NCBI GenBank assembly: GCA_963754385.1
Contig: CAVWGE010000001.1
Coordinates: 8,575 to 72,574, forward strand
DNA: 64,000 nt
Direction: 5' to 3'
Source of the DNA: an uncultured Chloroflexia bacterium
GTDB taxonomy: Bacteria > Chloroflexota > Dehalococcoidia > GIF9 > UBA5629
Part shown: positions 2,330-24,791 of the stretch, in pieces
Layout of the letters: each line of letters begins with the position of its first letter
Position numbering within the stretch: position 1 is the first letter of the stretch
Translations under genes and position numbers: made by a program
The notes under the pieces: model-generated
Databases searched by the model: none
The model's input: only the letters and a program-made list of their open reading frames with translations
Told to the model about the DNA's origin: nothing

Positions 2330-2404
2330 CGCGGGGTGGAGCAGTGGTAGCTCGTCGGGCTCATAACCCGAAGGTCGTTGGTTCAAATCCAACCCCCGCT
2401 ACCA
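2330..2404 (+). tRNA. metZ: Initiator tRNA-fMet (anticodon CAT)
   Basis: A 75-nt cloverleaf almost identical to E. coli tRNA-fMet (CGCGGGGTGGAGCAG...CTCATAA...GGTTCAAATCC...CCA). It has a 1:72 mismatch and three G-C pairs in the anticodon stem, the initiator hallmarks, and an encoded CCA. Confidence 0.9.
2360..2404 (+). repeat. attL core: 45-bp direct repeat formed by the 3' half of tRNA-fMet
   Basis: Exact 45-nt match (ctcataacccgaaggtcgttggttcaaatccaacccccgctacca) to 24747..24791. Confidence 0.85.
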
Positions 2405-2459
2405 ATTTTTAAAGCTAAAAAGCCCCCAAATCTTTAACAGAGACCGGGAGCTTTTTCAT

Positions 2460-2481
2460 TTTTGCTAATAATTTGCTAATA
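2460..2481 (+). repeat. 22-bp arm-type repeat (ttttgctaataatttgctaata) inside the island, next to attL
   Basis: Identical 22-mer at 24607..24628. It is itself a tandem of tttgctaata and is a candidate integrase arm-binding site. Confidence 0.6.
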
Positions 2482-3654
2482 ATGATTTTCTACCGCTGCT
2501 TTTTCACGCATGGGTAACACCATTTTGTCAAAGCCCGCAGCAGCAGCTTCTTGAAGTCCGGGGACTACATGGCTATAGGTATCAAGCGTTATCTGTATGC
2601 TGGCATGGCCTAATCGCTCCTGGACTATCTTTGGGTGTACGCCCTGCTTAAGCATCAGGGAAGCGTGGGTATGCCGGGCATCATGCAAGCGGAGTCCCTT
2701 TAAGCCAGCCCGCCTCGCCAGCTTGACCCAGGCGTGAGTAACAGTATCCGGTAGAAGTGGCTTACCTACAAGGTCACTGAATATCAGGTCATCGTCTTTT
2801 AACGGTATCCCCAGGCTTGCCCGTGTAGCTGCTTGCTTTTCCTTATGCTCTTGCAATAGCCGGGCTGCTGAAGGGGACAGGGATACCAAACGGCGTCCTT
2901 TAGCCGTTTTGGGTGATCTGAAGACAATCTCACCAGTTCGCAGGTGGTGAAGGGTGCGAGTAACGTGTGCCTGGCATAATAGCAAATCCACGTCACACCA
3001 CCTTAAGGCCAGTAATTCGCTTCGCCTCATTCCCGTGAAAAGCGCTTGATAAAACAAGACGTAGTAAGGCGTCCTTTTAGCAACTTCAAGAAACGTGCTA
3101 ATATCAAATTCACTTAAAGTATGCCACTGGGGGCGCTGATAACGGGGTGGGCTGACCGCATCTGCAACATTGCGGTTTAATAACCCCATTTTAACGGCGT
3201 GCTCAAGGGCGTCATGTAACGTCACGTGGTGGTGTCTTACCGTCCGGGGGCTTAACGCTCCCTTACCGTCACAGCGGCCGCCTGATAGCTTTTCAGAGTA
3301 ATAACGCTGTAACTGCTCTGGCTTTAGCTGCGTTAGTGGCATATTACCCAGGGATGGGATAAGGTGACGCCGTATGATATGCTCATAGCCTTCAGCTGTC
3401 CTAGGGGCAAGGTTAGGCCAAGCGTAGTCTTTAAGCCACTGTTCAAGATATTCCGCTAAGGTTGTCTTGCTCGGCTTCATGAAAGTGCCATTATCGAGCT
3501 GGTGTAATAATTCGGCAAGCCGCTTTTCAGCGTCTTTCTTGGTGCCTTTGATGCTGACCCATTGGTATTTATATTTGCTAGTAGTAGCATCCTTCCCCAA
3601 GCTTATCGCAATACTATAGCTATTCTTACTTCTCTTTACTATGTGACCTCGCAT
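2476..3654 (-). CDS. int: Tyrosine-type site-specific integrase (phage integrase family)
   Basis: 392 aa. The C-terminal catalytic region carries the R..HxxR..Y pattern (..ARHTHAS..; LGHASIQITLDTYSHV). It sits immediately 3' of the tRNA in opposite orientation, the classic island layout. Confidence 0.85.
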   Translation of the reverse strand: MRGHIVKRSKNSYSIAISLGKDATTSKYKYQWVSIKGTKKDAEKRLAELLHQLDNGTFMKPSKTTLAEYLEQWLKDYAWPNLAPRTAEGYEHIIRRHLIPSLGNMPLTQLKPEQLQRYYSEKLSGGRCDGKGALSPRTVRHHHVTLHDALEHAVKMGLLNRNVADAVSPPRYQRPQWHTLSEFDISTFLEVAKRTPYYVLFYQALFTGMRRSELLALRWCDVDLLLCQAHVTRTLHHLRTGEIVFRSPKTAKGRRLVSLSPSAARLLQEHKEKQAATRASLGIPLKDDDLIFSDLVGKPLLPDTVTHAWVKLARRAGLKGLRLHDARHTHASLMLKQGVHPKIVQERLGHASIQITLDTYSHVVPGLQEAAAAGFDKMVLPMREKAAVENHY

Positions 3655-4579
3655 TTTTTGTCTCCTCCTGTTTTATTTCTGTTATTCCTATTTTTCTGAA
3701 AAGAGCTTCCGATGGCAATAGTCCTGCTCCAGTTTCCAGTTTGTCTTGATTCTCACGTATAAAATCCCTCAGGCGCTTAACCAGGATATCGCTTTGAACT
3801 TCAGTTAGTTTATGCCGTACCACCTCTTCAGCCAAGGCGTTCCAACAGACGACGTAGTAAAGCCGAGCAATACCATTACAATCAACGAGACTATCTACTC
3901 CTTTTCCGTAGAACTGTATGCGATTATGTCTTTCAGTATATTGCGCCAAGCCAGTTTTAACATCATTTGAAATTAATCCAGGCGGCACTTGCGCTAACCA
4001 CTTTATGAATTCTAAAGACACATTGCTATCAAGAATGCTTATAAAAAATCCGGTATCTAACTCAGAACTATCAAAGTTAAGACCACTTAACTCACATACC
4101 TGCTCACGCAGGGCGAAAGCCCGCGCCCACGACAGAAGTTGACCGTCGTCATTTTTGCCGTCCCTAAAAAAGGGTAGACCGGACAGCCGCACAATCCATC
4201 TCGCCTGACGTATGGTAAGACGCTGCCCTTGCCCCTGCAATCCAAAATCTAGCGCCATAACGAGGGGCACGAGGTCAGGCGGTATTTCATTTTCCATCAA
4301 AGAACCCAGGGACCAAGGATTGTCTAAATGGGAAGGACTATGCTTCACCTTCTTCAGATATTTTTGAACTGTACTTAGCCCGGGCAGGAGTACTTCGTCA
4401 ACTTCATTGTAAATTTCTTTGTCTGTCCATTCAGGATGATTCTTTTTGGTTTGGTTGGCGAGGTATGACCTAAGTTCGCCACGAATCTGCCCCGCCGTCC
4501 AGCTGGGGTGCTCATTTTTAATGCGGACTACCTCATCCAGAACATTTTTAGTAAGTTTTTCAGGTCTGCCTCTTCGCAT
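3626..4579 (-). CDS. Hypothetical island protein (HTH-like N-terminus)
   Basis: 317-aa ORF directly upstream of int on the same strand. No recognisable catalytic motifs. Confidence 0.4.
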   Translation of the reverse strand: MRRGRPEKLTKNVLDEVVRIKNEHPSWTAGQIRGELRSYLANQTKKNHPEWTDKEIYNEVDEVLLPGLSTVQKYLKKVKHSPSHLDNPWSLGSLMENEIPPDLVPLVMALDFGLQGQGQRLTIRQARWIVRLSGLPFFRDGKNDDGQLLSWARAFALREQVCELSGLNFDSSELDTGFFISILDSNVSLEFIKWLAQVPPGLISNDVKTGLAQYTERHNRIQFYGKGVDSLVDCNGIARLYYVVCWNALAEEVVRHKLTEVQSDILVKRLRDFIRENQDKLETGAGLLPSEALFRKIGITEIKQEETKNARSHSKEK

Positions 4580-24221: not shown

Positions 24222-24606
24222 CACTAAGTATTTTGAAGGGTACCGACTATTGGCACCTGAGGTCATGTCAACTTCTCTACCGAAATTACAAGTAGAGGAT
24301 GGTATCTGTTATTATGGATGCCATTATTTACTTCATATGTAAATCGTCAGGGGGTACTGACGCCGAACCGATTAGGATAGACTATTATAATCTAGTCAGT
24401 GCAGTGATCCCTGTACTTTAGCTTGGATTGTTGCCTCGTTAAACGTTTGCCTGTTTTGTTACTTCATTGCGCATTAAAGCCAAATTGTTAATTGAACAAT
24501 ACTGGCTTTGATTCAGAGGCTTCTAACGGTTAGATGAGCCCAATTAGGCTAATTGAGTTACTACCCACAGGAATGTCACAATTTCACGCTCAAACCACAG
24601 CTAACA

Positions 24607-24628
24607 TTTTGCTAATAATTTGCTAATA
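24607..24628 (+). repeat. Second copy of the 22-bp arm-type repeat, ~120 bp inside attR
   Basis: Identical to 2460..2481. Confidence 0.6.
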
Positions 24629-24746
24629 GACTGAATAAAACGGGTTGTTACCAAAAGATATTCTACGTATAAAATGGTTTTTAGGGAATTAACACAAAGG
24701 TTTCAAATTGAACGTAAAATGACGGTTTGGTATGATAGACGCCAGA

Positions 24747-24791
24747 CTCATAACCCGAAGGTCGTTGGTTCAAATCCAACCCCCGCTACCA
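24747..24791 (+). repeat. attR core: 45-bp direct repeat of the tRNA-fMet 3' half
   Basis: Exact copy of 2360..2404. It is not preceded by a tRNA 5' half. Confidence 0.85.

Follow-up and report, generated by a model that had tools for sequence, protein, structure and literature searches.

What separates an initiator tRNA gene from a second, incomplete copy of its own 3' end that lies some 22 kb further along the chromosome? The question is raised by a 64,000-nucleotide stretch of DNA from an uncultured Dehalococcoidia bacterium (Chloroflexota; GIF9; UBA5629; assembly GCA_963754385.1, contig CAVWGE010000001.1, positions 8,575 to 72,574 of the forward strand). We call this stretch the window and give all coordinates in it, unless a locus from another metagenome (L001 and so on) is named. 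An initial annotation, drawn from the letters of the sequence alone, had read the tRNA gene, an adjacent integrase gene and the distant repeat as the attL / int ... attR layout of an integrative island. Our analysis supports that reading: the repeats, an intact integrase gene, an integration module shared with elements of different cargo, relatives with empty sites, and base composition all indicate that 2405..24791 is, very probably, a site-specific integrative genomic island of this anaerobic bacterium.

Integration target, repeats and integration module

The window opens within a 23S rRNA gene, of which the 3' two-thirds are present (1..2264, plus strand; Rfam LSU_rRNA_bacteria, 2212 bits, model positions 661-2925). 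The tRNA-fMet gene that is the integration target starts 65 nt downstream of its end (2330..2404, plus strand, anticodon CAT); the initial annotation had described this gene as complete, and ARAGORN and Rfam (tRNA, 67.4 bits) concur. It is the sole tRNA gene that ARAGORN reports in the window, as tRNA-Met(CAT), and its sequence carries initiator features, namely an unpaired C1/U72, three G-C pairs closing the anticodon stem, and A11:U24; we take it to be nearly identical to E. coli tRNA-fMet. An Rfam scan found no 5S rRNA within the 64-kb window, the interval between 23S and tRNA included, and tRNA-fMet is the last gene of the 23S transcription unit in this lineage.

The 45 nt that run from the first anticodon-loop base through the terminal CCA (CTCATAACCC...GCTACCA; attL core, 2360..2404, plus strand) recur exactly, as had been claimed, at 24747..24791 on the same strand (attR core). 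The window holds these two exact copies where none is expected (100 shuffles). Neither ARAGORN nor inspection of the sequence found a tRNA 5' half upstream of the second copy. The 7 nt preceding its identity block (repeat family D5) still resemble the 5' anticodon stem at 4/7 positions. The 45-mer is not part of a second functional tRNA gene, the window having just one, which disposes of an objection that the initial annotation had itself anticipated.

The 22-bp direct repeat that was noted just inside each end is likewise exact: the 22-mer TTTTGCTAATAATTTGCTAATA occurs at 2460..2481 and at 24607..24628 (both plus strand), with no copies expected by chance. It consists of the 11-mer TTTGCTAATAA twice in tandem, and besides the four resulting units the window contains two one-mismatch matches, as chance predicts. 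The left pair, presumed to be the integrase-proximal arm-type sites, overlaps the integrase stop codon; the right pair, the presumed distal sites, is located 119 nt ahead of the attR core. Between the attL core and the left pair there is a terminator-like hairpin with a U-run (2417..2456, plus strand; fold -12.6 kcal/mol, z = -2.75), which faces the converging integrase gene. This hairpin is supplied by the island and takes the place of the native terminator of the tRNA/rrn unit.

A common plan is evident past the core in every related element examined: a short A/T-rich stretch is followed by a hairpin and T-run and then by tandem repeats, a pair or triplet of about 11 bp abutting the integrase stop codon. 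The sequence of the hairpin stem differs from element to element. The repeat motif is identical in close elements (the window, L061 and L004; integrases 88-96% identical) and changed in four of the five more distant elements listed (integrases 53-79% identical), being GCTAACC in L026, AGCTAACC in L071, TTGGTCACGGA in L082 and of GCTAAC type in L125; the exception is L103, with near-identical TTTGCTAAT-type units. Such a pattern fits specific protein-binding sites, that is, sites of arm type, and the comparison thus lends backing at the sequence level to the suggestion that the 22-mers plausibly serve in this role.

Directly after the tRNA, in opposite orientation and converging on its 3' end, comes the tyrosine integrase gene that had been predicted (392 aa, 2476..3654, minus strand, with its stop codon at 2476); Pfam, PHROG, PDB and motif evidence agree on this assignment. 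The protein matches Phage_integrase (1.1e-22, over profile positions 3-168 of 172) and SAM_3 (6.5e-18), with a weak Arm-DNA-bind_4 match, and its best PHROG family (phrog_1, 1.8e-77) is the main phage integrase family. Both the core-binding and the catalytic domain have counterparts among solved integrase structures (PDB 2kkp, 3nkh), and the catalytic set is complete in the translation: R (TGMRRSE), K (SPKTAKG), HxxR (HDARHTH), H (LGHAS) and Y (DTYSH).

The start of int is overlapped by 29 nt by the 3' end of an open reading frame (ORF) for a 317-aa protein with an N-terminal helix-turn-helix (HTH) region (3626..4579, minus strand). Searches of NCBIfam, PHROGs and PDB sequences returned nothing for this protein, and Pfam only HTH_32 (8e-06), below its curated cutoff; an AlphaFold2 model, all-helical with a pLDDT of 76, has no significant fold match in PDB (best E = 1.5). 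The family is small, with 7 database relatives. The partner of the L001 integrase is 83% identical to it and those in L005 and L007 are 23-31% identical; the gene in the same position in L004 is unrelated. The protein has been kept beside family integrases at three different tRNA targets (23-83% identity). Further along, at 4757..4981 on the plus strand, the claimed excisionase-family DNA-binding gene is borne out by matches of its 74-aa product to HTH_17 (9.5e-13) and to the PHROG 'excisionase and transcriptional regulator' (7e-06).

More than 120 integrases 73-96% identical to that of the window are found in Chloroflexota/Dehalococcoidia metagenomes. The nearest are those of L001 and L002 (96%), which share with the window the same 23S end, tRNA-fMet, post-tRNA sequence and 22-mer, as well as the partner ORF (83%) and xis (90%). 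Across the whole tRNA-int-partner-xis module (2329..4938) nucleotide identity to L001/L002 is 91%, and homology stops at 4938, inside the 3' end of xis; the cargo beyond is unrelated. Other family integrases, 77-80% identical, adjoin tRNA-Ser(TGA) and tRNA-Arg(TCG), and in L004 (integrase 88% identical) the integrase gene borders on a 3' piece of tRNA-fMet, after which come another integrase and a ParB/Prim-Pol/PolA element in what is a tandem arrangement. The spacer between 23S and tRNA-fMet in L001 contains a 39-aa zinc-ribbon ORF of CxxC...CxxC type (MGGTVVKCGRCGGKG..., 11340..11460 of that locus), absent from the 65-nt spacer of the window.

These features suggest how the island may have arrived. 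Its circular form would have carried an attP with a 45-nt core matching tRNA-fMet from anticodon loop to CCA, the pair of 11-mers now at 24607..24628 lying 119 nt to one side of the core and that now at 2460..2481 lying 56 nt to the other. An integrase of lambda-Int type would have bound the core, its N-terminal domain binding the tandem arm sites on both sides, and recombination between attP and the tRNA gene would then have followed, the strands most probably being exchanged in the anticodon loop. Integration would have rebuilt an intact tRNA at attL, provided the rRNA/tRNA transcript with the island's own terminator, and placed the 45-nt copy at attR. Excision would depend on the HTH_17 protein.

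Empty sites and older layers downstream of the island

If the region between the repeats has been inserted, relatives with an uninterrupted site should exist. A metagenome scan with the 51-nt 3' part of the window's tRNA-fMet as query retrieved at least 120 loci. Among the matches listed, a homologous 23S end is present in 29 of the 89 loci with enough upstream sequence, a hairpin with a T-run follows within 60 nt of the CCA in 83 of 117, a homologous convergent integrase occurs in only 6 of the 83 loci with at least 1.3 kb downstream, and five loci carry a second copy of the tRNA end further downstream. Because hairpins are common and convergent integrases rare among the loci listed, the normal state appears to be 23S-tRNA-fMet-terminator, with occasional insertions.

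At the 23S end the closest relatives are 95-97% identical to the window, and relatives with 95-98% identical ends have a terminator hairpin immediately after tRNA-fMet and none of the island's 22 kb. In four loci (L135, L042, L130 and L105) the arrangement is that of an empty attB, 23S-tRNA-fMet-terminator, and then backbone. The backbone that these relatives share with the window begins at 50839..53339 (plus strand; 81-90% nucleotide identity to L135, L130, L062, L042 and L105, and 76-90% when the sequence further on is included), where Pfam identifies genes for a Zn-ribbon protein (51051..51263), an RNA recognition motif (RRM) protein (51347..51658) and an rpoD-like sigma-70 factor (51803..53332), all on the plus strand. 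The distance from tRNA-fMet to this backbone is about 0.07 kb in L135, 0.87 kb in L042, 1.8 kb in L130 and L062, and 5.6 kb in L105. In L135 (23S end 97% identical) the Zn-ribbon/RRM/rpoD genes lie only about 270 nt from the tRNA; since its backbone resumes about 0.07 kb past the tRNA, the whole of 2405..~50838 is absent from this relative.

Comparison with empty-site strains, which the initial annotation had proposed, therefore has a divided outcome. The empty 23S-tRNA-fMet-terminator arrangement does exist in relatives; the exact junction of tRNA-fMet to the sequence after 24791 was not found in metagenomes (25-mer search). As relatives resume synteny only at ~50.84 kb, a point overlooked in the initial annotation, the island is best regarded as the newest layer of a variable zone of about 48 kb.

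The initial annotation had also missed three earlier and progressively degraded copies of the tRNA's 3' portion, which lie downstream of attR. Directly after attR, a hairpin with a U-run (24792..24852, plus strand; fold -24.2 kcal/mol) is, by alignment, the one that followed the tRNA before the island arrived, and the 67 bp from attR to the next copy are probably the left-end remnant of an earlier, deleted element. That next copy, at 24859..24890 (plus strand), has 3 mismatches in 32. Another lies at 26644..26690 (plus strand; repeat family D10), where alignment, terminator scan and fold identify GCTACCA with a copy of the terminator, the sequence upstream being strongly decayed. The outermost, at 27170..27275 (plus strand), combines a decayed tRNA 3' part (27190..27228, possible start 27170) with a native-type terminator supported by terminator scan and fold, and is 77-90% identical to the tRNA-plus-terminator region of nine loci (L033, L042, L069, L094, L095, L105, L127, L130 and L135). 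Because its terminator aligns with the post-tRNA terminators of empty-site relatives (L095, L127, L094 and L069), we regard this copy as the displaced original tRNA end. At least three or four insertions have thus occurred at tRNA-fMet, the island being the most recent and the older ones having lost their integrases and decayed, and these fossils together with the late return of synteny show the sequence past 24791 to be earlier-acquired or variable DNA, not ancestral backbone. In L105, the closest relative, a segment of 3.8 kb without an integrase is bounded by a 34-nt exact and a 27-nt decayed copy of the tRNA end, the positions concerned being about 590 and 3924 nt past the start of tRNA-fMet; with a repeat-bounded segment of its own, this relative has therefore used the same hotspot independently.

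Other histories and known islands

Composition is consistent with a foreign origin of the island, though it is not strong evidence alone. The proposed comparison with the flanks gives lower GC and lower GC at third codon positions in the island (0.440 and 0.44) than in the conserved flank (0.497 and 0.535), and the tetranucleotide correlation between the two is 0.53. Several observations weigh against the reading as an integrative island. The compositional contrast is modest, with the adjacent variable region intermediate (0.471 and 0.47). A conspecific empty site was sought with an exact 25-mer across the attR/flank junction, which had no match in the metagenomes, so that the evidence for empty sites comes from relatives whose shared flank matches at only 81-90%. 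The 45-nt core likewise had no match in viral contigs, and no circular attP junction was seen there. As for the arm-type sites, the comparison between elements covers the integrase-proximal (left-end) copies, and the Arm-DNA-bind_4 match of the integrase (E = 0.006) falls below the Pfam cutoff.

How else might the locus be explained? The most serious alternative, albeit an unlikely one, is that the integrase inserted the DNA once, that excision was subsequently lost, and that the region is now functionally chromosomal. The missing circular junction accords with this, as do the lack of transfer genes, the hairpin of the island, imperfect in comparison with that of L061, and the decay seen in the cargo, where a C5 cytosine DNA methyltransferase gene (6825..7478, minus strand; Pfam and PHROG) is truncated to profile positions 23-167 of 324. 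Yet the 45-nt and 22-nt repeats are still exact, and int, its partner and xis are full-length and 83-96% identical to their homologues, which argues for purifying selection and recent activity; the island may be mobile today. A different possibility is that the mobile unit is larger, either a composite that extends from the tRNA as far as an outer fossil (24890, 26650 or 27228) or the whole of 2405..50838 built up in this way. The three further tRNA-end copies, the relatives lacking everything up to ~50.84 kb and the integrase-less segment of L105 would all suit such a unit, and tandem accretion is documented for the ssrA islands of Dehalococcoides (PMC3146451). Against it, attR is exact but the copies further out show decay (3-4 mismatches, indels), and in 27.3..50.8 kb neither a recombinase nor a tRNA-end copy was found; that stretch holds lineage-specific intergenic repeats and energy-metabolism genes, its products including a two-component system, an MFS transporter, HdrA/MvhD/NuoEF-like proteins, an aldehyde:ferredoxin oxidoreductase, PaaX and FdhD. 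We consider the larger unit improbable.

It is more improbable still that the region is a degraded prophage, a phage satellite, or an integrative conjugative or mobilizable element. The phage affinity of the integrase by its best PHROG family, and the ParB/Prim-Pol/PolA element beside the relative in L004, could be cited in its favour. However, Pfam scans of all ORFs of at least 80 aa in 2405..24791 found no relaxase, coupling protein or type IV secretion families, as a conjugative or mobilizable element would require, and neither Pfam nor PHROG identified capsid, portal, terminase, tail or lysis genes there, as a prophage would. PHROG matches in the island are confined to the integrase, the xis-like protein and the truncated methylase, its other small ORFs having none. 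Without transfer genes, spread of the island between cells would need a helper, whether a phage, a conjugative element or DNA uptake. Least credible of all is the idea that the 45-nt repeat arose when the tRNA region was duplicated locally or underwent gene conversion, independently of any integrase. Several duplicated intergenic modules do occur downstream, but the repeat is bounded exactly by the anticodon loop and the CCA, an integrase abuts attL, arm repeats match inside both ends, and the module recurs at this tRNA in other elements. An integrative island bounded by attL and attR thus remains the preferred explanation.

As such it is an ordinary, well-known kind of tRNA-targeting genomic island. 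A classification of islands of this kind is said to have been provided by Williams in 2002. In classical tRNA islands and prophages of lambda-Int/P4 type, crossover takes place in the anticodon loop and the identity block extends to the tRNA 3' end. With these the present element shares an integrase gene converging on the tRNA 3' end, restoration of the tRNA, a far-end direct repeat of the tRNA 3' part, arm-type repeats (here candidate ones) flanking the core, a small HTH excisionase and variable cargo. It differs in its uncultured Dehalococcoidia host, in targeting an initiator tRNA that ends an rRNA unit without a 5S gene, and in the conserved 317-aa gene translationally coupled to int. The metV islands of E. 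coli also use an initiator tRNA gene as integration site, and tRNA-fMet is mentioned in work on Sinorhizobium prophages; these hosts, Proteobacteria, are unrelated.

The nearest analogue from the same class is provided by the ssrA islands of Dehalococcoides mccartyi, in which a large serine recombinase, DsiB, acts with a 20-bp tmRNA repeat and the cargo includes rdhA (McMurdie et al. 2011, PMC3146451); direct repeats delimit these islands, which lie in tandem, share a conserved integration module by attL and lack transfer genes (PMC3146451). Common to both systems are the bacterial class, the use of the 3' end of a single stable-RNA gene, tandem copies set off by direct repeats, a conserved module beside attL, variable metabolic cargo, and the absence of transfer genes from what was found. 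In contrast, the element described here relies on a tyrosine integrase, repeats 45 nt of tRNA-fMet and carries cargo for CoA-dependent catabolism. Membership of the ssrA group was considered and rejected: DsiB-type and tmRNA features are lacking, and a tyrosine integrase and a tRNA-fMet target are present instead.

The general concept of genomic islands is unchanged by this finding. What it documents is a concrete route of gene gain in an uncultured Dehalococcoidia lineage, namely a tyrosine-integrase island at the terminal initiator tRNA of the rRNA unit, and a site that is a repeatedly used hotspot with about 48 kb of strain-variable DNA, which should aid the reading of variability among metagenome-assembled genomes (MAGs). 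It should likewise help to define att sites on which genetic tools, so far lacking in this group, might be built, and it draws attention to an integrase-coupled 317-aa protein that matches no known family above cutoff.

More tentatively, the element may belong to a large, undescribed integrative family of Dehalococcoidia that retargets among tRNA-fMet, tRNA-Ser and tRNA-Arg. Those fMet members that were examined bring their own terminator and arm motif, and in most members examined translation of int is coupled to that of an uncharacterised helical HTH protein (317 aa in the window), a candidate for a new type of accessory or regulatory factor in recombination. We hold this idea to be somewhat short of an even prospect. 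If true, such elements would be a possible main route for catabolic modules among uncultured anaerobes, comparable to the ssrA islands for rdhA.

Cargo genes and features of the variable zone

Beyond the integration module, the cargo opens with a gene for an isochorismatase-family hydrolase (6086..6799, minus strand; a profile match, RutB-like below the curated cutoff), followed by the truncated methyltransferase mentioned above. The latter retains only the N-terminal half and, lying between catabolic genes, is probably a remnant of an older module. A catabolic operon occupies 7503..15249 on the minus strand, encoding an aryl/acyl-CoA ligase, two family-III CoA-transferases, an enoyl-CoA hydratase, an Old Yellow Enzyme-type flavoenzyme and an Amidohydro_2 enzyme. 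A MarR-type regulator, identified by a profile match (15708..16235, minus strand), is divergent from a transporter operon of five genes for a Liv-type ABC importer (16606..21414, plus strand), comprising a binding protein, two ATPases and two permeases. Last comes a 904-aa hydroxylase of molybdopterin aldehyde-oxidoreductase type with two fused [2Fe-2S] domains (21507..24221, plus strand; Pfam), whose NCBIfam match (pterin_aldehy, 9e-277, 921 bits) is below the 1100-bit cutoff. No cargo protein reaches an NCBIfam curated cutoff. Taken together, these genes would constitute an importer, a CoA-dependent catabolic pathway and a Mo-hydroxylase for some organic acid.

Conservation of the cargo cluster was followed through homologues of the Mo-enzyme, and only its pairing with the isochorismatase-family gene recurs; the whole cluster does not. 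In L146 (2950..6662 of that locus) a Mo-enzyme homologue, 72% identical, directly adjoins an isochorismatase-family gene. This adjacency hints that the two island enzymes, encoded at opposite ends of the cargo, act together, possibly in the catabolism of amides or N-heterocycles.

Two kinds of intergenic repetition are found in the variable zone. One is a GC-rich repeat family confined to 26-50 kb of the window (26144..26198, 27295..27348, 28283..28503, 32255..32396, 33764..33861 and 49530..49680), which also occurs downstream of tRNA-fMet in L095, L105 and L127. One copy is directly 3' of the native-type terminator, and the copy beginning at 49530 contains that terminator. A repetitive extragenic palindromic (REP)-like repeat, a miniature inverted-repeat transposable element (MITE) and a recombination scar are all candidates for its nature. 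The other concerns the 130 nt ahead of the backbone, which are duplicated within the variable region in two pieces with 88-90% identity (26491..26573 / 50687..50769 and 28283..28322 / 50779..50818). The first of these resembles a promoter/5'-UTR that would drive a different small minus-strand gene at each site.

Adjoining the fossils is a panE/ApbA-like reductase gene (25024..26046, minus strand), with homologues 72-85% identical in 15 Dehalococcoidia MAGs. As a synteny anchor this gene was rejected, because its flanks are not conserved and none of the 15 homologues shares flanks with the window. It is present in two copies in L009 and split in L022, and in L010 it abuts a 43-nt copy of the 3' part of elongator tRNA-Met together with an integrase N-terminal pseudogene. 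A 392-aa ORF of L010, considered as a possible family integrase, was rejected by BLASTP. The panE/ApbA-like gene itself seems to travel with integrative elements.

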